In this document: in pieces, positions 10,413 through 32,435 of the stretch
Numbering within the stretch: the stretch's first letter is position 1
How the letters are laid out: the number at the start of each line of letters is the position of its first letter
Origin: a virus
Reading direction: 5' to 3' (one strand)
DNA: 64,000 bases
Virus record (IMG/VR): IMGVR_UViG_3300044445_000018
Coordinates: 1-64,000 of that record
Made by a program: the position numbers and the translations under genes
The notes under the pieces: generated by a model
Databases searched by the model: none
Told to the model about the DNA's origin: nothing
The model's input: the letters and a program-made list of their open reading frames with translations, nothing else

Positions 10413-10575
10413 AGCTTCCAAACTCCTGGGCGATCTCTTCTACGGCGGGGGTGTCGTAGGGGAGCGAGACCGTGTCCCCCTCGACGTAGTGCGAAACTCC
10501 GAGGTCGTCTAGTAAGTCCGCAAATTCGGACGCTGCACCATCGGAACCGTACCTATAGGTGATCCTTCGGTCCAT
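10147..10575 (-). CDS. questionable ORF: only the first ~54 codons (10413..10575) look coding
   Basis: Acidic N-terminal part MDRRITYRYGSDGAASEFADLLDDLGVSHYVEGDTVSLPYDTPAVEEIAQEF. The ORF then runs out of frame through 9894..10412 with low GC3 and no stop until 10147. Confidence 0.25.
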   Translation of the reverse strand: MDRRITYRYGSDGAASEFADLLDDLGVSHYVEGDTVSLPYDTPAVEEIAQEFGSYDRREFHPQGADRPGGLVSDGAVPARAHDDPDARSSSHQGLPISARYRGQAEQGRRGCYYDPAARTDGTRGQADRRARRLDLTRRWRQ

Positions 10576-12617
10576 CGTGTGTCTACCCCTTCCTTGAAGC
10601 GGTCCTGCCGCAGCTTCTCGACGTACGTGATGGACTTCTTGTGGGCCGTCCGCTGCTGTTCCTCCAGCGTCTTGGGGATTTGCCGGATCGAGACACCGTG
10701 CTTGACCCAGATTTCCCGACGCATGGTCAAGCCGTACACGACACCGGCCATCGCATCCGTCAAGTCCTTCGATCCGTTGGGAGGGTGGTCGATGACCCCG
10801 CTGGACGGGACAAGCTCCAACTGTGAGGCTTCCTTGATCGCCTTGATCTGCGGCGGACAGACGACACGCCCGTCATAGATCGCCTGTTTCAGCATGTCGT
10901 AGGCGAGGTTGTCCGTGTCCATTGACTGCGTGCCGGTCGTGAAGCCCTGGCCTGCCAGGATTTGCAGCATGTCCTTGGACTGGTGCGTGTCCGCCGAGAC
11001 CCACTTCAGCTTCACATGCTTGTTGACCATGTAGAGCATCCGGCGAATGCGCCCGTAGTCGATCTCGCCACCCTTGGGCGGCAGCACTTCGAGGATGAAG
11101 TCGAACTGGATGACGGGCAGGATTTCCTTCACGTCCCCGCGATCCACTTCCACGAACTTGGGCACGAACCCGCACGCGACCCCTGTGCTGTCCTTCGTGT
11201 CAGACAGATCGAGATGGGCGAAGCGCGGCTCCTCCTTGTGCATGAAGTGCTTCGGATACATGGCGATCTGGGACGTTACGAAGTCCCCCTTGTCCCGCGA
11301 CAGGACAGAGCGCACGAGGCCGAAGCACGCGGCGATGGCGTCGGTGTTGAGCATGAACGGGTGCATGGCCTGCGTTGCCACACCCACCACGTCACGCAAC
11401 TGCGTGAGCAAGTCCTTCTCCACGAACGCGGCCTTGAACTCGATGGGCACGGCGTGGACGAGATGCCGGTCCTCTTCCTTGAACTCCAGCGGGCTGTCCA
11501 CGAGGCGGGGCTTGCGGGTGCTGTCGCCGACGAAGACGTGGAACCAGAAGGGGTAGTTCTTGCCCCACCGTTCTTCCAGGGCCTCCGTCCGCGTGCCCCT
11601 GTAGAAGCCGAACCGCTCGGGTCTAAGCTCCCAGATGCGGCGGTCGTAGATGTAGATCGTCTTGTTGGTCTTGGCCTCGGCTTCCTTCTTGTCCGTGAAC
11701 TGGCCGGGGTAGTTTCGCGACGACACTAGACAGAGCATCCCCGGCAGCGCGCCTAGCTGGGCGAAGCGGGAGTTCCGGCGGGTGGCGATGCTCTCGTAGT
11801 TCTGGGTGGCCTGATCGTAGGTCTCGCCGTTCTTCGACTGCTTCGACTTCTCGACCACGGCCATGAAGTTGATCTCATCGATAATGCCCCCGATCACGTT
11901 CTGGCCGATAGCCGCCGTGTCCTGGCCCGAGATCGGCTTGATGATCATGTTGCGGGGGAACCGCATGTCGGTCTCACGGTCCTTCTGGTACGGGAAGTTC
12001 TCCTCGAACCAAGGCGAGTTCGACACCATGTCCCGCAGACGCTTGTAGTCCACGTCCTGCGCGACGTTCTTGTTGAGGGACTGGAGCACCATCAGGATTT
12101 CGGAGGACGGATCGAGATCGAAGGTCTCGTGCGGTTCCTCCATGCAGGCCAGCACATACTGCTGGTAGGCGATGGTGTAGATGGCCAGGGTGGTCTTGGC
12201 GACACCGATGGCGCCGGTCAGCACGGCCTCGACGTAGTCCCCCGAGTTGATCCTGACCCCGTGCTCGATGACCTTGGGCCACAGGATGCCGGGCTTGTTC
12301 AGATACTCGGGGCTCTCACAGAACGTGCGGAAGTCAACGGGAAGCTCGCGGTAGCCGATCTTCTCCTTGAGCTTCTTGCGCAGGTGTTTGATCGCGTCGA
12401 GGTAGTAGTCCAGCCGCTGCTGCTGGCTCCAGATCAGGTCTTCCTTGCGCTTGCGAAACTGGGGCTCCGACCCGTCCTGATAGTCCCCGACGTACCACTT
12501 GCCGAGCTTCCAGATGCGTTCCCCGATGGGGCCGAAGTTCTGGAGGATTTGCAGGCACGTCGTCAGTTGCAGGACAATGGGGTCTTGCTGCTTAGGCGAT
12601 GTCTTCGGCGGCTTCAT
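10509..12617 (-). CDS. terL: terminase large subunit
   Basis: 702 aa. Walker-A-like VLTGAIGVAKTT. C-terminal nuclease-like acidic segment AHLDLSDTKDSTG. Lies next to a small-terminase-like gene. Confidence 0.7.
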   Translation of the reverse strand: MKPPKTSPKQQDPIVLQLTTCLQILQNFGPIGERIWKLGKWYVGDYQDGSEPQFRKRKEDLIWSQQQRLDYYLDAIKHLRKKLKEKIGYRELPVDFRTFCESPEYLNKPGILWPKVIEHGVRINSGDYVEAVLTGAIGVAKTTLAIYTIAYQQYVLACMEEPHETFDLDPSSEILMVLQSLNKNVAQDVDYKRLRDMVSNSPWFEENFPYQKDRETDMRFPRNMIIKPISGQDTAAIGQNVIGGIIDEINFMAVVEKSKQSKNGETYDQATQNYESIATRRNSRFAQLGALPGMLCLVSSRNYPGQFTDKKEAEAKTNKTIYIYDRRIWELRPERFGFYRGTRTEALEERWGKNYPFWFHVFVGDSTRKPRLVDSPLEFKEEDRHLVHAVPIEFKAAFVEKDLLTQLRDVVGVATQAMHPFMLNTDAIAACFGLVRSVLSRDKGDFVTSQIAMYPKHFMHKEEPRFAHLDLSDTKDSTGVACGFVPKFVEVDRGDVKEILPVIQFDFILEVLPPKGGEIDYGRIRRMLYMVNKHVKLKWVSADTHQSKDMLQILAGQGFTTGTQSMDTDNLAYDMLKQAIYDGRVVCPPQIKAIKEASQLELVPSSGVIDHPPNGSKDLTDAMAGVVYGLTMRREIWVKHGVSIRQIPKTLEEQQRTAHKKSITYVEKLRQDRFKEGVDTRWTEGSPIGTVPMVQRPNLRTY

Positions 12618-13209
12618 GGTCGATCACTTTCCCCTTCTCGCCTGCGATGCGTGTGTCGGCAATGGCCAACAGCTTGTCAGCCTCTTCGGTCCATGTGAAC
12701 TGCCGGGTCTCGCCCTCTTCGTTCGTCACCATGCCATGCACAGTCTTCGGCGCCCGCTTCATGCCGATGCCGGTCTCCAACTGCATCTTGGAGAGTTCGG
12801 TGGTGGCTTCCTTCAGCAAGCGCAGTTCGTCGGTGGTCTGCTTCAGGAGGATGCCGCCGGGTAGGGACTGCTCTTTCAGCAGCAGCTTCTCCACGCGGGT
12901 CTTCTGGATCGTGCAGATCAACTCCATCTCGTCCAGGGCGATCAGCCGCTTGTGGGTGTTGGCGACGTTCTTGCCCTTCACCTTCTCCACGATTTCCTGC
13001 ACGACGGCAGCTTGCAGATCAACGGAGCGGTAGCGTTCGAGGTTCTTCTTGACCGAGCCCGGCTTGAGGTCCGTGAGTAGCCCCAGTTCCTCTTGCAGGT
13101 ACTTGGCCACGTTCGAGGGCGTATCCCCGCCCAGGAGCCGCTTGTTGACTTCCTCGACTACTGCGGGATCGAGGGTGTGGAGCCGTTTGAAGGCGACCTT
13201 CGAGGCCAT
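12592..13209 (-). CDS. terS: putative terminase small subunit / DNA-binding protein
   Basis: 205 aa directly upstream of terL and overlapping it. Helical N-terminus (TPSNVAKYLQEELG) followed by coiled-coil-like sequence. Confidence 0.4.
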   Translation of the reverse strand: MASKVAFKRLHTLDPAVVEEVNKRLLGGDTPSNVAKYLQEELGLLTDLKPGSVKKNLERYRSVDLQAAVVQEIVEKVKGKNVANTHKRLIALDEMELICTIQKTRVEKLLLKEQSLPGGILLKQTTDELRLLKEATTELSKMQLETGIGMKRAPKTVHGMVTNEEGETRQFTWTEEADKLLAIADTRIAGEKGKVIDHEAAEDIA

Positions 13210-13210
13210 G

Positions 13211-14161
13211 TCACGCCACTCCCTTCAGGCTGTCGAGATGATCCTTGGTCGGGGCCACGGCCATCTTCTTCGGGATCGTGACCATGCTGGTCTTCTTGAC
13301 CAGGGCCGGCATCGTGGGGGTCTCGCCTTGTGCAATTAATTGCAGAGCCGCCCCGACGACGTCGTCAATGGTGCGCTGCTTCTCGATGCACTGTTCCCCG
13401 ATCAGGTCGAGGGCCTTCATCGTCTTGCCTTCGATACGGAGCCACATGCTGCGCTGGCCGCCGTGATCGAACACCATGTAGCCGAAGGGCAGCGTGTCCC
13501 CGAACTTGGTGAACATCTCGTTGAGGAGCTTCGACAGCCCATCGACCGTCTTGATCTCCTTGGCGGCCTCCTTGAACTTGTCCTGGGAGGTCTTGTCGGG
13601 CAGCGCCTTGGCGGTCTGATTGATCAGCTTCTGCCACTCCTTGTCGTCGGAGATGGCGAACGCCTCCTGCATCACGTCAGGCCCGTAGACCTTCTCCAGG
13701 GACTGCACGAGGTCCATGAACGACTGCGGGTCCATCTTACCGTGGATCGCATTCATTCTGACGATCTGGAATTTCTCCGCGTCGTCATCGAAGTCTTCGG
13801 CCATGACGATGGTCACGGGGACTTCATCGAAGTCGAGGTACAGGGCGGCCTTCAGGCGGTGGTGGCCTCCGACGACACGGAAGCGGAGCGACTTGCTCGC
13901 GGCAGCCTTGGCGAAGGTCTCGGGGTCCTGCCCCGCCTTAGTCCAGACCTTCTCACACTCGGAGCGGTCGAGAGGACGAATGAGGATCGGGTCCGTCAAG
14001 CCCGTCTCTTCGATGTTACGACAGAGGTTGTTGAACTCTCGGTCGGACATCTTGTTGGGGTTCAGCGTATTCTCTTCGAGGAGAGCCGGTGCCAGGAAGC
14101 AACGGATGGTCTCCTTGGTTTTCTCAAAAGCGCCCACACCGGCCTCCGTGTCGCGGGACAA
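13211..14161 (-). CDS. ParB-like nuclease (ParB/Srx N-terminal) domain protein
   Basis: Motifs DPILIRPL and RVVGGHHRLKAA. Track start at 14161 is TTG; a GTG at 14137 follows GGAGG. Confidence 0.7.
   Translation of the reverse strand: MSRDTEAGVGAFEKTKETIRCFLAPALLEENTLNPNKMSDREFNNLCRNIEETGLTDPILIRPLDRSECEKVWTKAGQDPETFAKAAASKSLRFRVVGGHHRLKAALYLDFDEVPVTIVMAEDFDDDAEKFQIVRMNAIHGKMDPQSFMDLVQSLEKVYGPDVMQEAFAISDDKEWQKLINQTAKALPDKTSQDKFKEAAKEIKTVDGLSKLLNEMFTKFGDTLPFGYMVFDHGGQRSMWLRIEGKTMKALDLIGEQCIEKQRTIDDVVGAALQLIAQGETPTMPALVKKTSMVTIPKKMAVAPTKDHLDSLKGVA
13330..13345. promoter_or_regulatory. palindrome GTGCAATTAATTGCAG (intragenic)
   Basis: Perfect 14-bp core inside the ParB-like CDS (codes LQLIAQ), 121 nt upstream of the TerS-like start. 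Confidence 0.8.
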
Positions 14162-14197: not shown

Positions 14198-14521
14198 CTA
14201 CTTCGTTGGTTCGCTACGGACCAGGGCCGCGTCCAGCTTGTGCTTGAGGACAGCCACGATATCGCAGATGTCGTACACGATCTCGTTGAAGATACGATCC
14301 GAGACCGCTTGCTGATCGAGCGGTTCGTTGATGTACTCCAGTTCGACGTCACGCTGTAGACGCACGTTGTACTGAACATTGACCGCACCGCCGGGGCCGA
14401 CGAAGCAGCGGATCATCTGCCACAACTCGTGGTCCTCCGCTTCGATCCGGTTCATGGCGGTGACGACTTCATCCCCGATGGGTTCTTCTCTGATGACCAC
14501 TTCCGTCTGATCGTCCGCCAT
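14198..14521 (-). CDS. hypothetical acidic protein (107 aa)
   Basis: ATG 14521 lies 1 nt after the dcd-like stop. Confidence 0.5.
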   Translation of the reverse strand: MADDQTEVVIREEPIGDEVVTAMNRIEAEDHELWQMIRCFVGPGGAVNVQYNVRLQRDVELEYINEPLDQQAVSDRIFNEIVYDICDIVAVLKHKLDAALVRSEPTK

Positions 14522-14522
14522 G

Positions 14523-15170
14523 TCACTTCTCCTTGGTCAGGGCCGCAAGGTGGTCTTTGTCCTCCGTCCAGATACCCGGTGCGCTCTCGAAGCGGGCACC
14601 GTGGGCGCCCTTGGTCTGATGCTGGTACTTCCCGTCGTAGGGGTTCTCCGCATCGGCGTCGAGCCAAGTGAAGATGAACTGGCAGACGGCGTCACCCTTC
14701 TTGTAGCTGACGACCTTCTCGGAGAAGTTCACCAACTCCAGCGTGGCGTTGCCGTGGAAGCCGGGGTCGAAGAAGGTATTGAACGCCGAAACGAAGACGC
14801 GAGCATAAGTGCTCTTGTCACAGACCGCTCCTCCGACGTCTGCTGGGAGATGGAAGTCTTCGACGGTGTACGCCAGCGCGTAGTGAGGCGGTTCGTTGCG
14901 GAGTTCGGACTGTAGGGCGGGTAGATCACGCAGCGCCCTCCACAGTCCTCGGATACTGGCGAAGTCCTGTCTCAGCAGCCAGTCTTTCCAGACGATGCCG
15001 GGGTGTCTCCCGAGAGTGAGGTCGTGATCGATGCTCGCATCGTAGCTCGCGTGACTGAGCCCCTTGCTGGCCCCGTTCACTCTGATCTTCTCGTTGAGGA
15101 ACGGCGAGATCAGCGGCACTTCCGTGTTCGTGCAGAGGTTGCGGATGCTCTGCCCTGTCAACTGCGTCAC
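14523..15170 (-). CDS. dcd: dCTP deaminase/dUTPase-fold protein
   Basis: FDPGFHGNATLELVN signature and SYDASIDHDLTLG. GTG start. Confidence 0.75.
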   Translation of the reverse strand: MTQLTGQSIRNLCTNTEVPLISPFLNEKIRVNGASKGLSHASYDASIDHDLTLGRHPGIVWKDWLLRQDFASIRGLWRALRDLPALQSELRNEPPHYALAYTVEDFHLPADVGGAVCDKSTYARVFVSAFNTFFDPGFHGNATLELVNFSEKVVSYKKGDAVCQFIFTWLDADAENPYDGKYQHQTKGAHGARFESAPGIWTEDKDHLAALTKEK

Positions 15171-15363
15171 GGGTCTGTTCCTCGAAGCTGTGAATATGCG
15201 TGTGGGGGAATGTCTTCAGGATGCCGTCTTCCGTATCGACGGCGAACAGCATGTAGCACCAGGGATGGTACTCGTTCTCCGCGTACTTGCTGTATTGCGG
15301 GTTGACGAGCCGCTTGCGCCGCTCGCCCCTGTGGTTCGTGTAGTCGATCAGCGCATACGTCAT
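14926..15363 (-). CDS. small ORF whose first ~63 codons (15171..15363) look coding
   Basis: MTYALIDYTNHRGERRKRLVNPQYSKYAENEYHPWCYMLFAVDTEDGILKTFPHTHIHSF. The frame then continues 245 nt into the dcd-like gene with low GC3. Confidence 0.35.
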   Translation of the reverse strand: MTYALIDYTNHRGERRKRLVNPQYSKYAENEYHPWCYMLFAVDTEDGILKTFPHTHIHSFEEQTRDAVDRAEHPQPLHEHGSAADLAVPQREDQSERGQQGAQSRELRCEHRSRPHSRETPRHRLERLAAETGLRQYPRTVEGAA

Positions 15364-15373
15364 CCCAAGTACC

Positions 15374-16834
15374 TCAGTTCTTGCTCAGGACACCCGGCGT
15401 ATTCGTGTCCTTCCAGCCAGCCATGTTCAGGTACACCTTGAGCAGGTGCGCGTTGGCTCGCTTGCCCACGGGGATGCCCTTGAACTGGGCAGCGTTCGTC
15501 ACGAATACACCCTGCTCCCGTGCGAAAGCCAAGGCGTCTATCGAGGTCTGTCCAGTCGCCTCGATCTTTGCCACGAGGTCTTTGTACATCTGCCCGCCGT
15601 CCGTCTGCTCCAGCCTCTTGCGGAGGTACACTTCCTGATCGTCCACGAGCTTCTTGACCACGTCCAGCGTCGGATTGTTGGCCGCGCTCTCCACGAGGTC
15701 TCGCCATGTCGTACTCTCCCACTGCTTGAACTTGGCCATCTGGCCTTTGTAGTCGGTCGCGAACTCCCGCACGATGGCATACGCCTCGACGTAGTCGTTG
15801 GCGCGGAAGGGGTAGTCCTTGCCGAGGAAGTCGGCCCACGGGTGCTTGGGCACGATCACGGGCACACCGAACAGCAAGGGCTCGTAGGTGGACAGTGAGA
15901 AGTCCTCCACTGTCGAGAGGTTAACCACGACGTGCGCTTTGCCCTTCAGGAGGGCGTGGAACTGATCGCGGTTGTTGTGCTGCACGTCCATGAAGTCGAT
16001 CTCGCCCACGTTGGACGAACCGCTGGAGGCCGAGTTCGTGGAGACGATGAAGTTCATCTGCTTCTTCGTCGTGACGTGCGAAATGGCGTAGTGGTCCCGG
16101 AAGAGTTCAGCCACTTCTTTGAAGTTGCGGGTCCCGGTCATCCGGCCTGCGAAAACGACGTTCAGTCCTTTCCCAGGCATCTTGATGGTATTCGTAGCGA
16201 GCCTGGAGAGCTTCACGGGGACGCACTCGTGTATGGTCTTCTGCAAATCGAGTGCCTTTGACGGCGTCAGCCACTGCTTGGCGATACGCATCACTTCGCG
16301 TTTCGACCAGAGGTTGTTGATGATCACCGCTCCAGCCGATTGGTAGGCTGCCAAGCTGGTCAAGTCCATGTTGCCTGAGGAGGCCCATGAGACCGTGTCT
16401 CGAAAAGAGAACACTGGCATCTCTTCCAGGCCGATAAACAGCCGTTGGGTCCCTTTGGGGTAATTCCCGACTTCCCGCCCGGCCACATTCCGCATGAAGG
16501 GCAGTTGCGAGATACGCGACGTGAGCACGACATCGAAGTCCCATACCGGTGTATCCCCTGGTGCGAGAATGTGGATGAGCGGGTCAGACAGCTTGAACTG
16601 TTCCTCGACACGGTCGGCTTGCAGGTACGGATACGGCACGAGATGCACGCAGTCCGGTCGGCGGTTGAGGAACTTCCATTCCTCTTCGTTGTTCTTCGAC
16701 GCCTCGGGGTACATCAGGTAGAAGAAGACGTCGTCGCTCTTGGCCCGCAAGCCTTCGATGATCTCCCACGCGAGGTAAGAGGTCGAGCACTTGTGCGCCT
16801 TGCCCGTGTAGATCGGGTCGATCAGGATTTTCAC
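15374..16834 (-). CDS. GT-B fold glycosyltransferase
   Basis: EDFSLSTYEPLLFGVPVIV (E-x7-E region). GTG 16834 after GAAAGG. The track N-terminus upstream reads as off-frame. Confidence 0.6.
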   Translation of the reverse strand: MKILIDPIYTGKAHKCSTSYLAWEIIEGLRAKSDDVFFYLMYPEASKNNEEEWKFLNRRPDCVHLVPYPYLQADRVEEQFKLSDPLIHILAPGDTPVWDFDVVLTSRISQLPFMRNVAGREVGNYPKGTQRLFIGLEEMPVFSFRDTVSWASSGNMDLTSLAAYQSAGAVIINNLWSKREVMRIAKQWLTPSKALDLQKTIHECVPVKLSRLATNTIKMPGKGLNVVFAGRMTGTRNFKEVAELFRDHYAISHVTTKKQMNFIVSTNSASSGSSNVGEIDFMDVQHNNRDQFHALLKGKAHVVVNLSTVEDFSLSTYEPLLFGVPVIVPKHPWADFLGKDYPFRANDYVEAYAIVREFATDYKGQMAKFKQWESTTWRDLVESAANNPTLDVVKKLVDDQEVYLRKRLEQTDGGQMYKDLVAKIEATGQTSIDALAFAREQGVFVTNAAQFKGIPVGKRANAHLLKVYLNMAGWKDTNTPGVLSKN

Positions 16835-16991
16835 GCGCTTGCCTTTCGGTAGACGCGCCAACCCCCATCGGTCTTGCGCGCAGTCTTGCGGTAGTCGATC
16901 CCCAGATGCGTGATGGCCTGGGTCAGTGTTCCGGGGTACTCGCGGATCGAAACGTACTGATCCGGCTCTCCGGGTGCTATAAGACAGCACA

Positions 16992-17486
16992 TCACGCGAG
17001 GGAAGAACATTGAGCCTCCTGCGTCAAGAAGCGTTTGCGGATACGAGAGCCGGGCACGTTCTTGCTGTTCTGGGACTTCGTGGCCCAGCGCAGGTTGCGA
17101 CGGCGACAGTCCAGGGTGTTCCCGTTGCGATGATCCCCGATGCGGTAAGGTCTCCGAGGGCCTTTCCACCGCGTGAGGATTTCACAGTGCAGGAACAGGT
17201 TCCCGTAGCGAGGACGTCCCGAAGGCAAGAACCCGTCGATCTGAACAGACCGGCGGGCATAGATGCCATCAGGGCGCTCTAGGGCGTTCATCCAGGGCAG
17301 GTACTTGCCTGACCCGTACGTGTGGCACCAGAGGAAGTCTTTGGCCCACACGTAGTCTTGGTAGTCGAGCAGGACGTTGAGGTCCCACCGGTTCGACAGG
17401 CAGATCGCGAAGGTCGCGTCCGGTGCCGGTTCCGTGTCCCACGTCCTGGGATCGAATGGATCAGCCAGTAGCAAGTCTTCGAACAT
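16992..17486 (-). CDS. HNH homing-type endonuclease
   Basis: GDHRNGNTLDCRRRNLRWATKSQNSKN. Free-standing, between the glycosyltransferase and methyltransferase-like genes. Confidence 0.75.
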   Translation of the reverse strand: MFEDLLLADPFDPRTWDTEPAPDATFAICLSNRWDLNVLLDYQDYVWAKDFLWCHTYGSGKYLPWMNALERPDGIYARRSVQIDGFLPSGRPRYGNLFLHCEILTRWKGPRRPYRIGDHRNGNTLDCRRRNLRWATKSQNSKNVPGSRIRKRFLTQEAQCSSLA

Positions 17487-17498
17487 GAGCCGCCCCGA

Positions 17499-17514
17499 GT
17501 GACGTTAATTGCAC
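17499..17514. promoter_or_regulatory. junction palindrome GTGACGTTAATTGCAC
   Basis: Abuts the TGA stop at 17515-17517. 12 nt upstream of the HNH ATG. Confidence 0.85.
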
Positions 17515-18198
17515 TCAGATCGGCTCGACTTGCAGCGCGAGACGGAAGGCGTACGGTTCGACCCCTTGCACGTCGGAGTAGCAGGGCACAGACAGAACCG
17601 ATGTCACCGCGAGGTTTTGGTCTGCCAGAACCTCACGATAGGCGGCGATAGCGTCTTCCTCGCTGATGATGCCGTGGGAGCCCACGTCGTAGAACGATGC
17701 TCGCGCTGCCATCCATTTCTTGTAGTTGAACTCGGCGTACTCGTCGTAGCCGTGGGACCCGACCTCCTCCTTGTTGTAGGGCCGCTTGTTCACGTACAGA
17801 ACGATCAACGCCTTGGGCTTGAGCATCCCCTTGATGTGCCGCAGCACGTCGAAGTGCTCGATATGAGCGATCCCGAACGCGTCGTTGTGAATGCCCTGGG
17901 GCGTGTCGATCACGACCATGTCGTACTTGTGGGTGCAGCCACCCATGCTGGTGTACGAACAGCCGATGATGATCTCACGCGGATTGAACTTCTCCAGGGC
18001 CGGACGGTGCTCGGCGTTCAATTCCCACAGGTCGAGGTTGTTGATCTCGGTGTAGTAACGGCTGACGGTGAGCGCCCCATCACGGGCGAACATGTCGAGT
18101 GCATCGGGACCGATCTCGTAGAAGCCGAACAAGGCGTCGAAGAACAGCTTCGCACTGAGCTTGTCCGCGCCGGTCACGTCACAGGTACGAATTTTCAC
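17515..18198 (-). CDS. Rossmann-fold methyltransferase-like protein (RsmD/DNA-MTase-like)
   Basis: Motif I-like LDMFARDGALT. Motif IV position reads VVIDTPQG rather than DPPY. Confidence 0.4.
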   Translation of the reverse strand: MKIRTCDVTGADKLSAKLFFDALFGFYEIGPDALDMFARDGALTVSRYYTEINNLDLWELNAEHRPALEKFNPREIIIGCSYTSMGGCTHKYDMVVIDTPQGIHNDAFGIAHIEHFDVLRHIKGMLKPKALIVLYVNKRPYNKEEVGSHGYDEYAEFNYKKWMAARASFYDVGSHGIISEEDAIAAYREVLADQNLAVTSVLSVPCYSDVQGVEPYAFRLALQVEPI

Positions 18199-18213
18199 GG
18201 GGGCTGTCCTCGA

Positions 18214-19260
18214 TTACGAGCGAAGGTGACGAAGGATTTCGTCGGTGGTTTGGCCTGCGTACATGCCCTCGTCAAGAGGCAAGCAAGCAAACATGGACGC
18301 GACAAGCTCCGCGCCGATGTATCTGCGCTCAGTCGTCAGGTTAAGCGCAGAGATCAACTGGTCGGAAGTCTGGTAGACATGCCCCGAGAACTTTTTGATC
18401 CCGAGACAATCTGCTTCGAGGCGATCCACCGGGTACTTGTACCAGTTGCGGTGGTGGGCTCTGGCGAAGCGGTTGATGGGCTGGATGATCTTGCCGAGTT
18501 GGTGAGCCGCTTCCTCCCGCTTCTCCAGAAGCTCGTTGAGGCGCTTCATCTGGAGGTAGCCGACTGCCGCCGTCCATTCATCCATGCGGAAATTGAAGCC
18601 TCCGCTGCGGTGGCGAAGCACGCCCTCCTTGTCCCGGTACTTCCCGTAGTTGCGGAACTCGCGGCAAGCCTGAAGGAAGTCGGGGTCGCGGCTCACGATG
18701 ATGCCCCCCTCACCCGCAGGCACGGCCTTGGTCGGGTAGAGGGAGAACACCGCACCCTTAGACATGCGGCCGGGTCCGAAGATGCTGTTGACCCTGACGC
18801 CGAGGACGTGGGCCGCATCCTCGAACAGGGGAATGCTGCGCGCCATACAATACGCTGCGATCTGCTCGTAGTGTCGAGAGATTTTGCCCCCAACGTGAGT
18901 GAGGATCACGGCCGAGGGCTGCACAGGTTGGACTTCGAGGTCGTTGACGCACATGGACAGGTCGTCCGGTGTACAGTCAATGGGGATGACGCTGTAGCCC
19001 GCTTCGATAGGCATGGCCCCGGTGGCGAAGAACGTGTTGACGGGGACCGCGACAGGTTTCCCCACCGCGACCCCCGACATACGCAACATGGTGTAGAGGC
19101 CGGTGCCTGCCGAGTTGACAGCGCAGGCGGGAATGCCGCCCCACGCCTCGACGGCCTCTTCGAGAAGCCTGACGTACTTGCCTTCTGTCAGGTGCCCCGA
19201 CAGCCTGATCTCGTCCCAGGCTGCATGGAGGTCTTTCGGATCGACACCGACCACGCTCAT
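18214..19260 (-). CDS. DegT/DnrJ/EryC1-type PLP-dependent sugar aminotransferase
   Basis: AVNSAGTGLY and FSLYPTKAVPAGEGGII (Lys region). ATG 19260 overlaps the upstream stop (TAATG). Confidence 0.8.
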   Translation of the reverse strand: MSVVGVDPKDLHAAWDEIRLSGHLTEGKYVRLLEEAVEAWGGIPACAVNSAGTGLYTMLRMSGVAVGKPVAVPVNTFFATGAMPIEAGYSVIPIDCTPDDLSMCVNDLEVQPVQPSAVILTHVGGKISRHYEQIAAYCMARSIPLFEDAAHVLGVRVNSIFGPGRMSKGAVFSLYPTKAVPAGEGGIIVSRDPDFLQACREFRNYGKYRDKEGVLRHRSGGFNFRMDEWTAAVGYLQMKRLNELLEKREEAAHQLGKIIQPINRFARAHHRNWYKYPVDRLEADCLGIKKFSGHVYQTSDQLISALNLTTERRYIGAELVASMFACLPLDEGMYAGQTTDEILRHLRS

Positions 19261-19442
19261 TACGCCACCTTCGTCAGCGAGTAGCCTTCGAGGTAGTCCG
19301 AGTGGGCCACCCCGCGCTCGTCGGTCCACACGACCTCGAACTTGTCGATGCCTTCGGGATCGCCGACGATGGTCATGATCGGGGCGGTCTCGTCGTCATC
19401 GTTGCGGCGAACGTGATCGCCGGGCTTGAACTTGTCGGCCAT
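19260..19442 (-). CDS. small protein (60 aa), YodC/DUF2158-like
   Basis: KFKPGDHVRR...PIMTIVG pattern. Confidence 0.4.
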   Translation of the reverse strand: MADKFKPGDHVRRNDDDETAPIMTIVGDPEGIDKFEVVWTDERGVAHSDYLEGYSLTKVA

Positions 19443-19444
19443 GG

Positions 19445-20395
19445 TCAGATGTCCTTTCCGTAGAAGCGCAAAGCGTTTGCGCGGTGGTCGGGGGAAAGCT
19501 GGTCGATGTACTCGACCGTTTTACGAATACTGTCCTCGAACGGGACGACGGGCAGGATGCCTTCGCCTTCCCAATAGGACATATCCGCAACCAGATTGAC
19601 GCCGGGCTTCTCGCCTTCGCGCATGGGCACGTTGACGATCTTGGACCCTTTGTCCTTGTAGCGGTACTTCTCGTTGACGATACGCAGGATGGTGTGCGCC
19701 GCGTCCTGGCACGAGATGGCCTTGCCCGAGCCCAGGTCCACGACATCGGCACGACGGCCGAGATTGCGACACGCATGGACGGTCAGGGCGGACAGGTCTT
19801 CCACGTCGATGGGGTCGATGGTCTGCGATCCGTCGCCGTAGACTTCGAGGTCGAAGCCGTACATGGCGAACAGGATCATCATGGGCAGGAACTTCCGCAC
19901 CGGGTACAGGTGCTGGTACGGGCCGACCGCGTTGAGCCAGCGGACGGTGGCCACTTCCATGTCGTACTTCTGCTGGTAGAGGCGGCCGACGAGTTCACCC
20001 GCGTGCTTGGTCAGCGTGTACGAGTTCTCGTCGTAGCCGTCGAAGTGAGGCTTGGCGACGTTGTAGACCCGCTTGACCCCGGCGAGACGGCACGCGTCCA
20101 TGACGTTGTTGGCGCCGACCACGTTGGTCTCACAGGCGAGGCTGGAGATCGCGATCAGTTCCGACGTGCCGAGGATGCCCGCCAGATGGTAGACCTCGTC
20201 CACGCCCTTGAGCGGGGCCAGCAGGGAGGACAGGTTGCGGATGTCCGCGTAGTGGAAGCTGGCCTTCGGCGGCATCCGAACCTGGGGCACCGCGACGTCG
20301 ATCAGGACAAGCTCGGTCTCGGGTTCGTACTTAGCGAACCACAGCATCAGGTTCGTACCGATGAAGCCTGACGATCCGGTGATGGCAACGCGCAT
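19445..20395 (-). CDS. NAD-dependent sugar epimerase/dehydratase (SDR)
   Basis: ITGSSGFIGTNL (GxxGxxG) and YTLTK (YxxxK). Confidence 0.8.
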   Translation of the reverse strand: MRVAITGSSGFIGTNLMLWFAKYEPETELVLIDVAVPQVRMPPKASFHYADIRNLSSLLAPLKGVDEVYHLAGILGTSELIAISSLACETNVVGANNVMDACRLAGVKRVYNVAKPHFDGYDENSYTLTKHAGELVGRLYQQKYDMEVATVRWLNAVGPYQHLYPVRKFLPMMILFAMYGFDLEVYGDGSQTIDPIDVEDLSALTVHACRNLGRRADVVDLGSGKAISCQDAAHTILRIVNEKYRYKDKGSKIVNVPMREGEKPGVNLVADMSYWEGEGILPVVPFEDSIRKTVEYIDQLSPDHRANALRFYGKDI

Positions 20396-20399
20396 GGGT

Positions 20400-21041
20400 C
20401 TATGCTTCCTTCAGATATTTGACATGATAGGCTTCGGCATACTCGGCTCCGCACTGACTGCCCCACACGCGAGCTTGTGCAATTAAGTTCACTGGTGAGC
20501 GGGGTCCTTCGGTGCGGCTCTCGGTGGTGTAGCAGGCCATCGCCTCGATCTTCTTGTCCATGACCTCCTGTGTCATGGGCAGGTAGAAAGAGGGTTGCCG
20601 CACAATACCGTCCAGAGCGAAGAACTCAAGGACGCGGTCGATCTTGCCGAGATTGATCGGACGCAGGGCAATACCACAGACGTGGTTCAGATGTCGATGG
20701 TCTTGATTAAGATCATCACCCGCCGGGATGATGACTTCATCCGGCTCGAAGTTCTTCAGAGCCCATTCGATCTTGCGCAGCAGATCGTAATAACCGACTT
20801 TTCCTGGCTCTCCTTCGGTAGAGGGGCGTCCTGCCGAGACCTCTACGAAATCGAGTAGCTTCTTGGCTTTGAGGAAGTCGGGATATTCCTGCTGCCAGCC
20901 ATCCTTCTGGCCGTGGAAGTACGCCCTGGTAAAGACGACGAGGACGAGAACGTCGATGCCTTCACGACGACGGGCCTGAATGAGGCCCGCGCATGAGATC
21001 GTCTCGTCGTCTAGGTGGGGGGCGATGATCAGCGTTCTCAT
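20400..21041 (-). CDS. PIG-L/LmbE family N-acetylglucosaminyl deacetylase
   Basis: IIAPHLDDETISCAG motif. ATG 21041 in ATGA overlap, 9 nt after GGAGGA. Confidence 0.75.
   Translation of the reverse strand: MRTLIIAPHLDDETISCAGLIQARRREGIDVLVLVVFTRAYFHGQKDGWQQEYPDFLKAKKLLDFVEVSAGRPSTEGEPGKVGYYDLLRKIEWALKNFEPDEVIIPAGDDLNQDHRHLNHVCGIALRPINLGKIDRVLEFFALDGIVRQPSFYLPMTQEVMDKKIEAMACYTTESRTEGPRSPVNLIAQARVWGSQCGAEYAEAYHVKYLKEA
20477..20492. promoter_or_regulatory. palindrome GTGCAATTAAGTTCAC (intragenic, near 3' end)
   Basis: Inside the deacetylase CDS (codes VNLIAQ), 82 nt upstream of the epimerase ATG. Confidence 0.8.
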
Positions 21042-21277
21042 GGTTTCCATTCCTCCATCTGTGTCAGCAAGGGTTCAGCCATTTTGAGGTAGTGCTGCTG
21101 TTCGAGCACAGTGGCCTGTACCCAGGCTTTGTTGCGCTCGTGCATGAGAAGAACACCCGCGACGTAGACTAATCGCCGGTTGCGCAGACGCTTTTTCTGA
21201 CCCTCTTTGCGGTTGCGCGGGACGAGAGGGCCGTTGAGGAGTTCGGCTCTGGTCGCGAGCTTCACTTCGCGGCCCAT
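21038..21277 (-). CDS. hypothetical basic protein (79 aa)
   Basis: Co-directional ORF that overlaps both neighbours by a few nt. Confidence 0.4.
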   Translation of the reverse strand: MGREVKLATRAELLNGPLVPRNRKEGQKKRLRNRRLVYVAGVLLMHERNKAWVQATVLEQQHYLKMAEPLLTQMEEWKP

Positions 21278-22386
21278 TTGCGCTTCTCGTTCAGGATGTG
21301 GATGTTGTCGTACACGATCTGGATGGTCTCAGGCGTGCATAGTTCGGGAGGCAGTCCCTTGCCGAGCATGAAGTTGTAGTCCTGAAACCACTTCATGTCT
21401 TCGAGGGTGGAGGACATGATGCGACGACTGACGCAGCCGCCCTCGGCAATGAAGATCAGCGCGCCCATGGGACCCTTGGTCTTGTCCCACGGGATCATGC
21501 TGAACTGCTCGTGCTTCGTGCAGAGGTGCGTGTGGAAGGCTTTGCTGGCCTTGTTGCCCTGCATCGTGTGCATGTCGAACGCATACGACGGGACGGACTT
21601 GATCTCTTCCACGGGCGGGTAGGCGTCGTCTTGTATGCTGTCGGCCTCGCTGCCGTCTGCCTCTTGGAACATCCGCATGGTGGGGAATAGCGCGAGGGAC
21701 ATGCTGTCGGCGGTACGCTCGAAACTGAGCATGGCAGCCCGTTGCCACGCCACGTCGTGCAGGTTGTCACGGATCACGAGCAGGGCTTCGGTCAGCGCCT
21801 CGATCCCGCCCCCGCGCAGTTTCTTCCGCAGCACACAGGCCGCGATGTAGGAGAACATCGGGTTGGTCGAGGCGAGCACTTGCAGAAGCACGCCCGTGTC
21901 CATGCTGGGCATCTGACGCCACATCTCGGGGTAGTCAGACGGGACTGGCCACGGGGGCTTGGGGTTGCCGTCCTTGTCGGTGCCGTCCGCCTGGATGTCA
22001 CAGCCGAGGGACAGTTCACAGCAGGAGCGGGTCTTGTCCGCGACACAGGCACGGGAAATGAGGCCCGCGTACAGCATCTCGGGCTCCATCTTGTCGCGCA
22101 CGGACTTGAGCGTGCATTGCGTGGAGTAGGCCACGAGGTCGGGATCGCCGAAGCCGATGTCTTCGATGATCATCGTGGCGAGACCCTGCCAGCAATACGT
22201 GTCGTCTGCCGTGTAGACGTACTCACCCATACGCAGGGCTGTCTGGATGTCGCCGCGTCGGATGGACTTCTGGAGGGCGGACTTGACCAGCCACTTGTTG
22301 TTGGCGTTGGACAGGGAACGAGGCGAAAACCCCGGTGCCTGGGCACAGAGGTCTTGCATCTCGTCATAGATGGGATCGTCTGCCAT
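21262..22386 (-). CDS. protein with MgsA/RarA C-terminal-like helical domain, no AAA+ module
   Basis: SALQKSIRRGDIQTAL...MIIEDIGFGDPDL resembles KSxRGSD...EDIGxADP of MgsA_C. Confidence 0.45.
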   Translation of the reverse strand: MADDPIYDEMQDLCAQAPGFSPRSLSNANNKWLVKSALQKSIRRGDIQTALRMGEYVYTADDTYCWQGLATMIIEDIGFGDPDLVAYSTQCTLKSVRDKMEPEMLYAGLISRACVADKTRSCCELSLGCDIQADGTDKDGNPKPPWPVPSDYPEMWRQMPSMDTGVLLQVLASTNPMFSYIAACVLRKKLRGGGIEALTEALLVIRDNLHDVAWQRAAMLSFERTADSMSLALFPTMRMFQEADGSEADSIQDDAYPPVEEIKSVPSYAFDMHTMQGNKASKAFHTHLCTKHEQFSMIPWDKTKGPMGALIFIAEGGCVSRRIMSSTLEDMKWFQDYNFMLGKGLPPELCTPETIQIVYDNIHILNEKRKWAAK

Positions 22387-22412: not shown

Positions 22413-22781
22413 TTAGAGTGTATCACTATGGTCGGTCTGTGAAAGGTAAAAGTCGCTGTTGATGACCCAATGCTCGACAGTGACGTCTCTCCCCTCAGAC
22501 CGCAGCTTGGCCCCGAGCAGTTCTGCCAGGACCACGGAGCGGTGCTTGCCGCCGATGCAGCCGAAGCCGACTGTCTTGCCGTGACAAGCCGCAAGGTAGC
22601 CGCGCTGCACGAGGTCTTCTGTCTCCACGGCTTCCTTGACGTACGCCTGGACCTTGGGATCGAGGCCGTTCAGGTGGCGCAGCGCCGGATCGCTGTGCGG
22701 GTTGGGGAGGACGCGGCAGTCGATGCGCATGTCCACGATCTTTGGAGCCCCGAGGCGATAGCTGAAACTAACGATCTTCAC
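22413..22781 (-). CDS. stand-alone RapZ (YhbJ) C-terminal domain homologue
   Basis: VSFSYRLGAPKIVDMRIDCRVLPNPHSDPALRHLNGLDPKV and GCIGGKHRSVVLAELL match the RapZ C-terminal domain. No P-loop N-domain. GTGA overlap with the upstream stop. Confidence 0.75.
   Translation of the reverse strand: MKIVSFSYRLGAPKIVDMRIDCRVLPNPHSDPALRHLNGLDPKVQAYVKEAVETEDLVQRGYLAACHGKTVGFGCIGGKHRSVVLAELLGAKLRSEGRDVTVEHWVINSDFYLSQTDHSDTL
22417..22444 (-). promoter_or_regulatory. possible sigma70-like promoter TTTCAC-16-TACACT
   Basis: Overlaps the 3' end of the RapZ-like CDS. About 30 nt upstream of ATG 22386. Confidence 0.4.
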
Positions 22782-22966
22782 GCGGTCTTGTCCTTCTCGA
22801 TGATGCGCTTGAGCGCCGTATGGTTGCGACGGAGGATGGCTTTGGCAGCGTCGTCCCGCAGAAGCAATTGGGTCGGGATGATGAACTGACGGAACTTGCC
22901 TGTCGCTTTGTGGCGCAGCGTCGTGACGTCTCCGTTGCGGGTCAGGATGTAGTTGGCGTTTTGCAT
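22778..22966 (-). CDS. hypothetical small protein (62 aa)
   Basis: Strong SD AAGGAGGG upstream of the ATG. Confidence 0.55.
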   Translation of the reverse strand: MQNANYILTRNGDVTTLRHKATGKFRQFIIPTQLLLRDDAAKAILRRNHTALKRIIEKDKTA

Positions 22967-22991: not shown

Positions 22992-23019
22992 AGTATAACC
23001 CCTAGGGACGTGGTGTGAA
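22992..23019 (-). promoter_or_regulatory. sigma70-like promoter TTCACA-16-TATACT
   Basis: The -35 overlaps the palindrome at 23015..23030. Confidence 0.5.
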
Positions 23020-25786: not shown

Positions 25787-25818
25787 AAAAGCAAAGAACC
25801 CAGCCGGTGAGGGCTGGG
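25787..25818 (-). terminator. intrinsic terminator
   Basis: Minus strand CCCAGCC-loop-GGCTGGG followed by TTCTTTGCTTTT. Confidence 0.7.
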
Positions 25819-25839
25819 CTCCGAGGTCAGACTACTTGA

Positions 25840-26214: not shown

Positions 26215-27489
26215 TTACGCCGCCTTCTGGGGCGGGATCGTGGCGCGCTGCTCGGCAGTCATGTTGGACGTGAAGCCCGAACCCCAGATGGTCGTGACTT
26301 CGTCGTTCGTCAGGAGACGGCCGAGAATGAACTCGCAACACAGCCGCTGGAAATCGCGATAGTCCATCGAGAAGTTCAGCAGGCGGTTGTTGAACGGAGA
26401 CTGGTAGCTGCCCGCATCGAAGAACGCGGCGCTGCTGGCGCGGTAGTCGAGCACCTTGCCGACGATGTCGGACTTGCAGGTGGGTCCCCAGGCGTAGGCA
26501 TGGCAGGACTGGCCATGGTCGGCGCCGAAGTTGCCGTTCTCGCGCATCGTGCGGTGGAACTCGGTCATGGTGGTGAGCATCACGCGCTGGGAGTTGCCGC
26601 TCTGCTCCATGTCGTAGATGAAGGCTTCGATTGCGTCCGAGAACGTCGCCATCATCAGCGCATGACGGCGAGCGCCACGCGGGGTGTTGATCGAGCCACC
26701 GGCATCGGAGTGGTGATCCCAGCCGTCGTAGTCACAGCAGATGTACCGGGCCGGCACGCCTGCGATGATCATCCGCGCCGCGTCCCGCAGCTTCTGCGAC
26801 CAGCTATCCGAAGGATACTTGGGCGCATTGGCGTTGAGGTCCGAGGGCGTCTGAGCGGGGACCGGAAGCGAGCCGAGACCTTCGTTGGTGTCGAGCATCG
26901 CCATTGCCGTGGCGCGACCGGTGACGGCCTCCACGTTGGTCGCCGAGGGAGCGGCCTTCATGAACTTCTTGGCCAGGGCCACCGGCTCGGGCAGCAGAAG
27001 CGGGACGACGCTCTTGGTGGACGCGTACGTCGAGACAAGACCGATGACAGACCGGGTCGGCGCGTTGCCGAGCGAGATCAGATCGAGAGGCGTCGCGACC
27101 GGCGGCTTGAAGAGGCCGGCGAACCGGTTCATGTAGCCCGAGTTCAGGAAGTTGTAGTTGACGCCGCCGCAGTCGATGCGGCCCTGCTCGTAGAAGTGCG
27201 AGCGGGTGGCGGCCGGCGTGCCGAGGGTGAAGAACGCCGTCATCGCGTAGGACGGGTGGTTCCACCGATTGGTCATGGCCTTGAAGCGGGTGTTGAGCCC
27301 GTAGCCCTTCTGGCCTTCCAGTTCGATGGTGTCCGCAATCGCTGCGTGCGAGTTGGGGAAGCGGTTGGCCGAACGGTAGTCGTCCAGCCAGGAGACGCCG
27401 GGGATCGACTTGTGGGCGACGATCTCGTTCGTGCCCATGGCTGCACCACGGCGGAAGATGCAGACTACGATACGCTGGTCGTTTGCCAT
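26215..27489 (-). CDS. DUF1501 (sulfatase/alkaline-phosphatase-like) family protein without Tat signal
   Basis: VVCIFRRGAAMGTNEIV, TRSHFYEQ, GWDHHSD and TEFHRTMRENGNFGADHG match DUF1501 landmarks. The protein starts directly at the mature domain. Confidence 0.75.
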   Translation of the reverse strand: MANDQRIVVCIFRRGAAMGTNEIVAHKSIPGVSWLDDYRSANRFPNSHAAIADTIELEGQKGYGLNTRFKAMTNRWNHPSYAMTAFFTLGTPAATRSHFYEQGRIDCGGVNYNFLNSGYMNRFAGLFKPPVATPLDLISLGNAPTRSVIGLVSTYASTKSVVPLLLPEPVALAKKFMKAAPSATNVEAVTGRATAMAMLDTNEGLGSLPVPAQTPSDLNANAPKYPSDSWSQKLRDAARMIIAGVPARYICCDYDGWDHHSDAGGSINTPRGARRHALMMATFSDAIEAFIYDMEQSGNSQRVMLTTMTEFHRTMRENGNFGADHGQSCHAYAWGPTCKSDIVGKVLDYRASSAAFFDAGSYQSPFNNRLLNFSMDYRDFQRLCCEFILGRLLTNDEVTTIWGSGFTSNMTAEQRATIPPQKAA

Positions 27490-27501
27490 AGATCAGGGTC
27501 C

Positions 27502-29298: not shown

Positions 29299-29325
29299 AG
29301 TCTGCGCCTCGCGCTAGGGTGCTTC

Positions 29326-29357
29326 AGACGAAGAAACCCCCCGCCGTGAGGCGGGAG
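29326..29357 (-). terminator. intrinsic terminator after the fibre/adhesin gene
   Basis: Minus strand CTCCCGCC-TCAC-GGCGGGGG followed by TTTCTTCGTCT. Confidence 0.6.
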
Positions 29358-29372
29358 GCTCCTGGGGTTGGC

Positions 29373-31739: not shown

Positions 31740-31752
31740 TAAGGTCGGTTCC

Positions 31753-32406: not shown

Positions 32407-32435
32407 ACAGGGGGACCTCGTCTTGGGACAGTGCG

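Follow-up and report, generated by a model that had tools for sequence, protein, structure and literature searches.

A conserved six-gene module for predicted amino-sugar glycosylation in a lineage of ~100-kb siphophages

Gene Content and Operon Layout

The DNA analyzed here (hereafter the window) comprises 64,000 nucleotides of the IMG/VR virus record IMGVR_UViG_3300044445_000018, which cover 64 kb out of the ~101 kb of the phage genome, and all of its genes are located on the minus strand. Our subject is a group of genes in this window which encode a PIG-L/LmbE-family deacetylase, an SDR protein, a DegT-family aminotransferase, a methyltransferase-like protein, a glycosyltransferase (GT) and a ParB-like protein (Table 1). 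The window was 100% identical to a public assembly contig of 101,168 bp (SRR35356176_110381). An initial annotation, made from the sequence alone, had listed eight co-directional elements from a dCTP-deaminase-fold gene to the deacetylase; all eight were present on the minus strand, and the independent gene calls of the contig matched their coordinates. Placement by hidden Markov models (HMMs) agreed with this picture in that the PIG-L, SDR, DegT, HNH and dCTP-deaminase proteins passed their family models.

Table 1. Features of the module and its neighborhood, listed in the direction of transcription (ORF, open reading frame; aa, amino acids; GC3, GC content at third codon positions)
Feature	Position	Strand	Support or remark
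Promoter-like site TTCACA-16-TATACT	22992..23019	-	10/12 consensus matches; upstream of the module-containing operon
62-aa ORF, function unassigned, first after the promoter-like site	22778..22966	-	Overlaps the next gene's start with its stop
RapZ C-terminal-domain-like protein, stand-alone, 122 aa	22413..22781	-	PF22740 3e-26; NF003828 RapZ residues 163-275, 86 bits
374-aa all-helical protein	21262..22386	-	Similarity to the MgsA/RarA C-terminal domain in the first ~110 aa
79-aa basic ORF (pI 10.5), no assigned function	21038..21277	-	
PIG-L/LmbE-family zinc deacetylase, core gene 1	20400..21041	-	PF02585
Atypical extended SDR, core gene 2	19445..20395	-	PF01370
60-aa ORF, translationally coupled, sub-lineage-specific	19260..19442	-	GC3 0.89; independently called
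DegT/DnrJ/EryC1-family PLP sugar aminotransferase, core gene 3	18214..19260	-	PF01041
RsmD-like class-I methyltransferase-like protein, core gene 4	17515..18198	-	Weak profile matches, motifs
HNH homing-endonuclease insertion, outside the module	16992..17486	-	HNH_3 PF13392 1.3e-7, 31.5 bits
59-aa ORF between HNH and GT, overlaps both	16831..17010	-	
Retaining GT-B/GT4-type glycosyltransferase, core gene 5	15374..16834	-	AlphaFold, Foldseek, EX7E
dCTP deaminase-family protein (DCD), nucleotide metabolism	14523..15170	-	PF22769, phrog_1663, TIGR02274
107-aa acidic ORF, no assigned function	14198..14521	-	
ParB/Srx-fold "ParB-like nuclease domain" protein, GGHHR motif, proposed sixth member	13211..14137	-	phrog_26387
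205-aa protein upstream of TerL, small-terminase candidate (position only)	12592..13209	-	
Large terminase subunit (TerL)	10509..12617	-	Homology to annotated TerL; weak phrog_9 match

The genes of the module overlapped or were closely packed behind a single promoter-like site, one of only two such sites in the 16.5 kb scanned. A strong terminator was located upstream of this site (25795-25822), and no convincing terminator was found between the site and TerL. We infer that the module is expressed during lytic growth. The SDR orthologue of Stenotrophomonas phage DLP3 has been reported to be abundant in lytic virion preparations.

Conservation and Distribution of the Module

Ten genomes were examined, which included phages of Rhodobacter, Rhizobium, Vibrio and Stenotrophomonas as well as metagenomic genomes. 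The order PIG-L, SDR, aminotransferase, methyltransferase-like protein and GT was kept in all ten, an arrangement far from chance, and phage RHph_TM16 was the only one without the PIG-L and methyltransferase genes. The ParB-like gene, which the initial annotation had left out, followed the GT directly or nearly directly in 9 of 10 genomes (37-54% identity among orthologues), separated from it in some by a small ORF or short gap and in the window by the DCD gene and the 107-aa ORF. It also followed the GT in genomes L009 and L014, where no terminase is located nearby, and it was therefore counted as the sixth member of the module. The real unit thus comprises PIG-L, SDR, aminotransferase, methyltransferase-like protein, GT and ParB-like protein. 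The last of these matched phrog_26387 (5.6e-67), and its domain also matched ParB-N-fused DNA methyltransferases.

Only seven deposited phages were shown by tblastn with the GT to carry the cassette, namely Rhodobacter RcZahn (GT, gene 146), Rhizobium RHph_TM16 and RHph_Y1_11, Vibrio KarBoss, and Stenotrophomonas DLP3 (GT, DLP3_102), DLP5 and Summit, all siphophages of ~100 kb. Their cassettes have the same genes in the same order as the window, which differs by the additional HNH insertion, 60-aa ORF and DCD gene. Cassette proteins were 40-73% identical between the window and the deposited orthologues; the SDR was the best conserved (57-73% across phages of different hosts), and the GT showed 40-57% identity across alpha- and gamma-proteobacterial hosts. 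In a large protein collection the GT family formed a tight set of ~112 homologue clusters, all from contigs of 113 kb or less, with the longest contigs concentrated at 92-112 kb; none of the clusters occurred on contigs above phage size, and a profile search for distant homologues brought up nothing beyond this tight family. The module marks out a widespread lineage of ~100-kb phages whose hosts are bacteria from soil, water and the clinic. Members available in culture include RcZahn, Summit, DLP3 and DLP5, the last two of which have been put forward for therapy. The deposited cassettes have been briefly speculated on as DNA or lipopolysaccharide (LPS) modification genes and never characterized, and our literature searches for a characterized modification in this phage lineage returned nothing.

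Other neighbors were not constant. The initial annotation had presented the DCD and packaging genes as part of the context, and they are indeed present where it placed them, but they are incidental neighbors. A DCD homologue in RcZahn (gene 88) was located ~29 kb away from its module, and DCD was absent at this position in Summit and RHph_TM16; terminase adjacency was also broken in some relatives. Similarly, the RapZ-C-like protein was also found upstream of the module in RcZahn and RHph_TM16, and the 374-aa protein adjoined PIG-L in the window, RcZahn, KarBoss, L008 and L015 and the SDR in RHph_TM16, but was not adjacent to the module in DLP3/Summit, L009 and L014. Because adjacency was not conserved, DCD, the RapZ-C-like protein and the 374-aa protein (MgsA_C-like) were all rejected as core members. 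The HNH gene, already called an insertion in the initial annotation, was absent at this position in the other nine genomes (L014 has an unrelated HNH gene elsewhere), and the 60-aa ORF was absent at its position in RcZahn and Summit. A PADLOC scan of the module and neighboring proteins revealed no defense-system membership.

Enzymes of the Module

The PIG-L protein matched PF02585 with 44.2 bits (cutoff 28.2), and its metal/catalytic motifs HxDDE (H9, D11, D12 and E13) and NQDH were invariant in 8 orthologues. The best named relatives were BshB1, which was also the only NCBIfam match, and TT1542. To our knowledge, all characterized PIG-L-family enzymes deacetylate N-acetylglucosamine (GlcNAc) glycosides after sugar transfer, i.e., GlcNAc-phosphatidylinositol, GlcNAc-inositol, GlcNAc-malate and N-acetylparomamine, and the natural GT4 partners of these deacetylases include BshA and MshA. 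This precedent suggests that deacetylation is most likely the last step of the pathway and not part of sugar-nucleotide synthesis.

The SDR matched PF01370 with 94.5 bits and contained both the NAD-binding motif GxxGxxG (TGSSGFIG) and the YxxxK motif (Y126-T-L-T-K130). In an alignment with DesIV, the invariant SDR sequence AKPHFDG took the place of the segment STDEVYG and 12 residues of a loop were deleted, so that the catalytic Thr and the Asp-Glu pair were replaced by Lys-Pro-His. The classical catalytic Ser/Thr was also absent, and the TIGR01181 score was 75 bits against a cutoff of 365. Lacking the catalytic Thr and the Asp-Glu pair, the protein was rejected as a 4,6-dehydratase of the RmlB/DesIV/PseB/PglF kind. 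It is probably a sugar-nucleotide oxidoreductase that provides a keto-sugar for transamination.

The aminotransferase matched PF01041 with 170.5 bits, and its PLP-lysine motif S.YPTK..P.GEGG was invariant in 9 orthologues, with the Schiff-base Lys and not the His of the dehydratase variant. The nearest relatives were PseC (best), ArnB and perosamine synthase, all far under their equivalog cutoffs (for example, 141.9 bits against 423.5 for PseC and 69 against 631 for ArnB), and the WecE cutoff was likewise missed (48 against 375). Since no module enzyme reached an NCBIfam equivalog cutoff, the exact sugar cannot be named. The initial annotation had viewed an epimerase/dehydratase, an aminotransferase and a deacetylase as the standard toolkit for an unusual amino-sugar nucleotide. 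The families, and an amino-sugar tailoring set accompanied by a GT, held up, whereas the SDR is not a canonical dehydratase and PIG-L would act after transfer.

The methyltransferase-like protein had no match in Pfam, NCBIfam or PHROG, and profile matches to PDB were weak (E-values 0.018-1; PH1915, RlmL and RsmD, and also RlmI-type). PADLOC gave a match to mad2 (2.7e-4), and one distant relative weakly matched Cons_hypoth95 (19 bits). The conserved motifs FARxG, E59 and DxPQG resembled a degenerate glycine loop and DPPY box. An exhaustive search with this protein revealed a broader family of ~200-aa proteins, whose distant relatives included one fused to a GT4 (P0199) and one fused to a WbqC-like polysaccharide protein (P0213); a third relative carried the name nucleotide-sugar epimerase/dehydratase. 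These fusions tie the domain to sugar chemistry, and the protein probably methylates the sugar. Support for the label methyltransferase-like comes from the weak RsmD/RlmL-type matches and the fusions.

The DLP3 orthologue of this protein, DLP3_099 (L011:17295-17975), is named Erm (erythromycin-resistance rRNA methylase) in GenBank and in the DLP3 paper, where the published support is only a shift of the minimum inhibitory concentration in the lysogen. We rejected this name as no Erm/RrnaAD HMM matched, either in NCBIfam at E<=0.1 for DLP3_099 and four other orthologues or in Pfam for the window protein. The fusions to sugar-related domains also contradict the name. The antimicrobial-resistance label on DLP3_099 looks unsupported, which corrects the public record.

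The AlphaFold model of the GT (pLDDT 90.6, pTM 0.89) showed a GT-B fold with two Rossmann domains. A Foldseek search against PDB gave 216 matches at E<=1e-3, and the top matches listed were all GT-B enzymes (PglA, BshA, MshA, SenB and OtsA), with PglA, BshA and MshA nearest, although sequence identity to the BshA/MshA-type matches was only 10-14%. The EX7E motif (E310...E318) was invariant in 46 family members. The protein scored below the Pfam gathering thresholds for both Glycos_transf_1 (17.5 against 26.4 bits) and GT4-conflict (20.2 against 26), and 11 homologues carried a precomputed match to PF20706 (GT4-conflict). Thus, the GT-B assignment of the initial annotation rests on the fold and the EX7E motif rather than on Pfam. 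The GT also carries a C-terminal helical extension of ~100 aa. After its own orthologue, its closest viral structural neighbors were Arthrobacter-phage glycosyltransferases, with a TM-score of ~0.72 over the full length including the extension.

Predicted Pathway

The catalytic apparatus was intact in the GT, PIG-L, aminotransferase and SDR (NAD motif and YxxxK), and no protein contained a membrane segment (highest 19-residue hydropathy <=1.47). We consider it likely that the six genes form a lineage-specific, cytoplasmic glycosylation module with the enzymology outlined below. The genes present, their catalytic motifs, the fold, the conservation and the operon setting are direct observations, and from them we infer the substrate, step order, regiochemistry and acceptor. 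First, the SDR would oxidize a host UDP-HexNAc, most simply UDP-GlcNAc, to a keto-sugar without 6-deoxygenation, and the PLP aminotransferase would transaminate this product. The methyltransferase would then methylate the amino-sugar, probably on the new amine, and the retaining GT4 enzyme would attach it to the acceptor at a hydroxyl (or amine). Finally, PIG-L would remove the 2-N-acetyl group after transfer, leaving a cationic, methylated diamino-hexose. RHph_TM16-type phages, which have neither PIG-L nor the methyltransferase, would make a simpler sugar.

A stand-alone RapZ C-terminal domain is encoded a little upstream of the module. In RapZ this domain binds GlmZ RNA and glucosamine-6-phosphate, and the phage protein could, speculatively, link the module to the supply of UDP-GlcNAc. 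A second, canonical GalE-like UDP-hexose 4-epimerase (229 bits; cutoff 262) was detected in DLP3 (gp76, L011:5887-6930), RcZahn (gene 77, L013:19629-20654, labeled "UDP-glucose dehydrogenase") and Summit. It was absent from the 76 kb of the window phage genome that were seen (the window plus 12 kb of flanking sequence).

Relationship to Known Systems

In the synthesis of bacillithiol (BshA/BshB), mycothiol (MshA/MshB) and aminoglycosides (e.g., NeoM/NeoL), GlcNAc is placed on a hydroxyl by a retaining GT4, after which a zinc deacetylase of the PIG-L/LmbE family liberates the 2-amine; the module is proposed to use the same order of transfer and deacetylation. Unlike these pairs, the module has no scaffold enzymes (related to inositol phosphate, malate or 2-deoxystreptamine), adds an SDR, an aminotransferase, a methyltransferase and the C-terminal extension of the GT, and is confined to phages. 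The same resemblance raises the possibility of a soluble small-molecule product or counter-defense chemistry, in which GT4 and PIG-L would build a glucosamine glycoside or modify a nucleotide signal and the acceptor would not be a macromolecule. The GT4/PIG-L pairing is the hallmark of such steps, the aminotransferase scored similarly against 2-deoxy-scyllo-inosose and scyllo-inositol aminotransferases, and the GT and 11 homologues had the weak GT4-conflict matches mentioned above. We nevertheless regard this product as quite improbable, as no enzyme that could form a scaffold, such as an inosose synthase or a cysteine ligase, was found nearby, the extended SDR implies a nucleotide-sugar substrate, and linkage to the ParB-like gene would be unexplained.

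A second resemblance is to the bacillosamine/pseudaminic-acid-type pathways (PglF/PglE, PseB/PseC), the Arn pathway and mimivirus UDP-viosamine synthesis, in which an SDR and a DegT aminotransferase likewise put an amino group on a nucleotide sugar. In contrast to these systems, the SDR of the module lacks the 4,6-dehydratase residues and all equivalog scores were 3- to 5-fold under the cutoffs; there is also no N-acetyl- or formyltransferase, and a methyltransferase and a deacetylase take their place. The module may be viewed as a "transfer then deacetylate" pair grafted onto an "oxidize then transaminate" sugar-nucleotide branch, together with a sugar methyltransferase.

Phage DNA glycosylation includes glucosyl-5-hydroxymethylcytosine in T-even phages, arabinosyl-5-hydroxycytosine in RB69 and Acinetobacter phage DLP3, and hexosyl-5-hydroxycytosine in Rhizobium phage RL38JI (PMC13326640). 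As in the module, these systems use phage GT-B transferases, sometimes with nucleotide-sugar genes, near DNA-metabolism genes (PMC13326640). However, they start from a thymidylate-synthase homologue that makes 5-hydroxymethylcytosine or 5-hydroxycytosine, usually accompanied by a deoxynucleoside monophosphate kinase, neither of which was found in the 76 kb covered for the phage studied here. The GT was also not close to the T4 alpha- or beta-glucosyltransferases, and the module lineage shows strong avoidance of restriction sites. The "DLP3" of PMC13326640 is an Acinetobacter phage and differs from Stenotrophomonas DLP3, the carrier of the cassette.

Like the module, the GtrABC/O-acetylase seroconverting cassettes represent phage-encoded sugar modification in temperate phages. 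But Gtr systems center on membrane proteins and undecaprenyl phosphate carriers and are variable morons near attachment sites, whereas the proteins of the module are all soluble and its genes are core and lie in a lytic operon. As judged from sequence, the module belongs to no characterized pathway at the equivalog level and lacks the features that define T4-type DNA glycosylation and Gtr seroconversion.

Modification of the host envelope, as in lysogenic conversion or superinfection exclusion, was suggested by the authors of the DLP5 and DLP3 papers, who called cassette genes morons for membrane modification. The GT would then act on a conserved acceptor such as an undecaprenyl-diphosphate-linked sugar or the LPS inner core. 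Indeed, the top PDB neighbor PglA acts on the former, the LPS core is the target of GT4 enzymes of the RfaG/WaaG type, both DLP3 and DLP5 are temperate phages, and the logic of protecting an amine, transferring the sugar and deprotecting it recalls the Arn (L-Ara4N) pathway. On the other side, the lineage carries the module as a syntenic core feature, unlike a variable moron, and it is placed in a lytic operon between replication and packaging genes; it contains no membrane protein, flippase, Gtr-like component or transmembrane segment; the GT is kept in phages of alpha- and gamma-proteobacteria, whose envelopes differ; the GT family never occurred on contigs above phage size; and the NCBIfam equivalog cutoffs were missed widely. 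We therefore consider an envelope acceptor unlikely. For a host-like O-antigen cassette, which the initial annotation had named as a finding that would overturn its reading, the confinement of the GT family to phage-size contigs, the lack of membrane segments and the lack of any equivalog match led to rejection.

Phage DNA as a Candidate Acceptor

Our choice of acceptor, with only a narrow lead, is the phage's own DNA, a reading to which we give somewhat less than an even chance. The ParB/Srx-fold partner would supply DNA binding, and the positive charge of the sugar would help against nucleases and possibly in packaging. Several observations favor DNA. The ParB-like gene keeps its place behind the GT, also without a terminase nearby, and ParB-N domains recur fused to DNA methyltransferases. 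Phage-encoded nucleotide-sugar genes that serve DNA glycosylation have precedent (PMC13326640). Restriction resistance has also been reported, as DLP3 DNA was described as resistant to 15 restriction enzymes and only 4 of 36 enzymes were reported to cut DLP5 DNA. In the DLP3 genome (MT110073; L010 and L011), sites were present for five of the enzymes reported not to cut, i.e., SmaI (68), ClaI (18), EcoRI (7), NdeI (4) and XbaI (1).

A number of findings weigh against DNA as the acceptor. The DLP3 genome has zero sites for BamHI, HindIII, KpnI, SphI, PstI, SacI, SalI, ApaI, SpeI and XhoI, which make up 10 of the 15 "resistant" enzymes, so the published inference of modified DNA rests on five enzymes. 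The same laboratory has reported restriction resistance for several unrelated Stenotrophomonas phages. The evidence for DLP3 resistance is much thinner than published, and most of this resistance can be put down to missing sites, a second correction to the public record. DLP3 DNA may still carry some real modification, and for SmaI to be blocked, C or G would have to be affected.

Site avoidance was evident throughout the lineage. In the window, 6-bp palindromes occurred 477 times against 1073 expected and 27 of 64 were absent, including CGATCG (0 observed, 50 expected), CTCGAG (0/35), CCGCGG (0/30) and CTGCAG (0/27). In all, 12 palindromes were absent at 10-50 expected copies each, AGGCCT, AGATCT and CACGTG among them, and GACGTC, TGATCA and GGCGCC were not depleted. 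The observed/expected ratio of 6-bp palindromes was 0.35 in RcZahn and 0.56 in DLP3, compared with an average of 1.0 (standard deviation 0.2) for non-palindromic hexamers. Some non-palindromic hexamers were also missing from the window, such as GGATCT/AGATCC (0 against 30) and CACCTC (2 against 29). Such strong, lineage-wide avoidance points to long-standing exposure to type II enzymes and thus argues against blanket protection of bases.

Enzymes that would provide a hydroxylated base were also not found in the part of the genome covered. Neither a ThyA-type hydroxymethylase/hydroxylase nor a TET/JBP enzyme was detected in 76 of the 101 kb, a search that covered ~90 window ORFs and the called genes of the flanking 12 kb with Pfam; ThyX was not found by tblastn in the same 76 kb. 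Exact-pattern scans of viral and metagenome collections for the remaining 25 kb (contig bases 37,210-62,051), where structural genes are expected, gave no matches. The absence of a hydroxymethylase-type gene that the initial annotation had reported for the window was thus borne out and extends beyond it. Among relatives, the only confirmed thymidylate-synthase-type gene was a divergent ThyX-like gene (RcZahn, Summit and DLP3 gp107). DLP3_141 is labeled thymidylate synthase in GenBank, in conflict with the phosphatase domain that the DLP3 paper reports for it. Finally, the GT is not close to known DNA glucosyltransferases, as DNA alpha-glucosyltransferase entries of BFVD ranked only 29th and 45th with TM-scores of 0.36-0.38; the median pI of the GT family was 6.3, and PIG-L and the methyltransferase were acidic.

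T4-like DNA glycosylation, one of the options raised in the initial annotation, lacks its defining hydroxylated-base enzyme in 76 of 101 kb and would have to coexist with extreme restriction-site avoidance. If DNA is the acceptor, the module may glycosylate it without a thymidylate-synthase-derived 5-hydroxymethyl or 5-hydroxy pyrimidine. The sugar would be placed on an exocyclic amine or on a handle made by an unrecognized enzyme, the ParB/Srx-fold protein would be the DNA-engaging subunit, and a partial or sequence-limited modification with a cationic, methylated diamino-sugar would coexist with site avoidance. In this specific form the proposal is doubtful. Should DNA be the acceptor, the module would represent the first amino-sugar (cationic glycan) hypermodification of DNA. 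It would also be the first case in which DNA is glycosylated without starting from a base of the thymidylate-synthase type, and the enzymes would be useful for DNA labeling.

Glycosylation of a virion structural protein (tail tube, decoration or fiber) by the same pathway would need no hydroxylated base. An acceptor must be conserved across very different hosts, which fits a phage protein, and the module shares its lytic operon and transcript with packaging and structural genes. The nearest viral folds to the GT were those of the actinophage enzymes mentioned above, and GT4 includes protein O-GlcNAc transferases, for example SdgB, which was among the PDB matches. Giant viruses such as mimivirus use viosamine/bacillosamine-type sugars on the virion, and some actinophages and mycobacteriophages have capsid and tail glycans. 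On the other hand, the major capsid protein of DLP3 was recovered at 92% coverage as unmodified peptides, no Ser/Thr-rich tail stood out among the head and tail proteins of RcZahn and DLP3, and the ParB-like partner would be left unexplained. We also know of no precedent for virion glycosylation in phages of Gram-negative hosts, to which, if true, this reading would extend the phenomenon. Overall, a virion acceptor seems unlikely to us, and phage DNA remains our provisional preference.

Other Genes of the Window

The identity of the DCD protein given in the initial annotation was well supported by PF22769 (56 bits against a cutoff of 27, 6.5e-15) and phrog_1663 (3.6e-37), with TIGR02274 just under the cutoff (80.8 against 92.8 bits); its sequence contains KSTYAR and FDPGFHGNATLEL, which represent the catalytic TLE/SxxAR motifs. 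The 203-nt gap between the GT and DCD genes holds a 64-codon ORF (15171-15363) with a coding-like GC3 of 0.86. This ORF reaches the start of DCD in the +1 frame and runs for 81 more codons without its own stop, so that either a small gene in its own right or an N-terminal extension of DCD read by frameshifting may be present. RNA structure in this gap was not significant (z = -1.9).

For the 374-aa protein, the name AAA-ATPase (RcZahn gene 141, L001:5205-6320) was rejected because it has no P-loop domain. Its model had a pLDDT of 92, in which only the MgsA_C-like part had structural relatives and the remaining helical region had none; no enzyme or base-modifying fold was recognized in it. TerL shared 44-56% identity with the proteins annotated as TerL in RcZahn, Summit, DLP3 and RHph_TM16, and the 205-aa protein was kept beside TerL in RcZahn, RHph_TM16 and Summit.

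Between TerL and DNA polymerase A (117-2519) lies a block of five genes (7558-9702, 6203-6802, 5035-6135, 4186-5010 and 3174-4079) conserved in RcZahn, DLP3, RHph_TM16 and L015. These encode a 714-aa protein with PPDK ATP-grasp and phospho-histidine domains (PPDK residues 13-526) and a differing 180-aa C-terminus, two DSP-type phosphatases and two proteins without assigned function. The combination of a dikinase and DSP phosphatases is reminiscent of glucan water dikinase and SEX4/laforin, and the block could be another carbohydrate or nucleotide phosphorylation system. Four large genes unusual for a phage were found at 26215-32454, coding for a DUF1501 protein of 424 aa, a DUF1800 protein of 598 aa (165 bits), a protein of 788 aa that contains He_PIG Ig domains and an fn3-domain protein of 233 aa; no homologues of these were found among RcZahn genes 91 and 92. 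A CsrA-family Pfam match (5e-5) came from one of the small ORFs of the window. In addition to the HNH_3 homing-endonuclease gene inserted in the module, the window contains a second one at 62535-63011.

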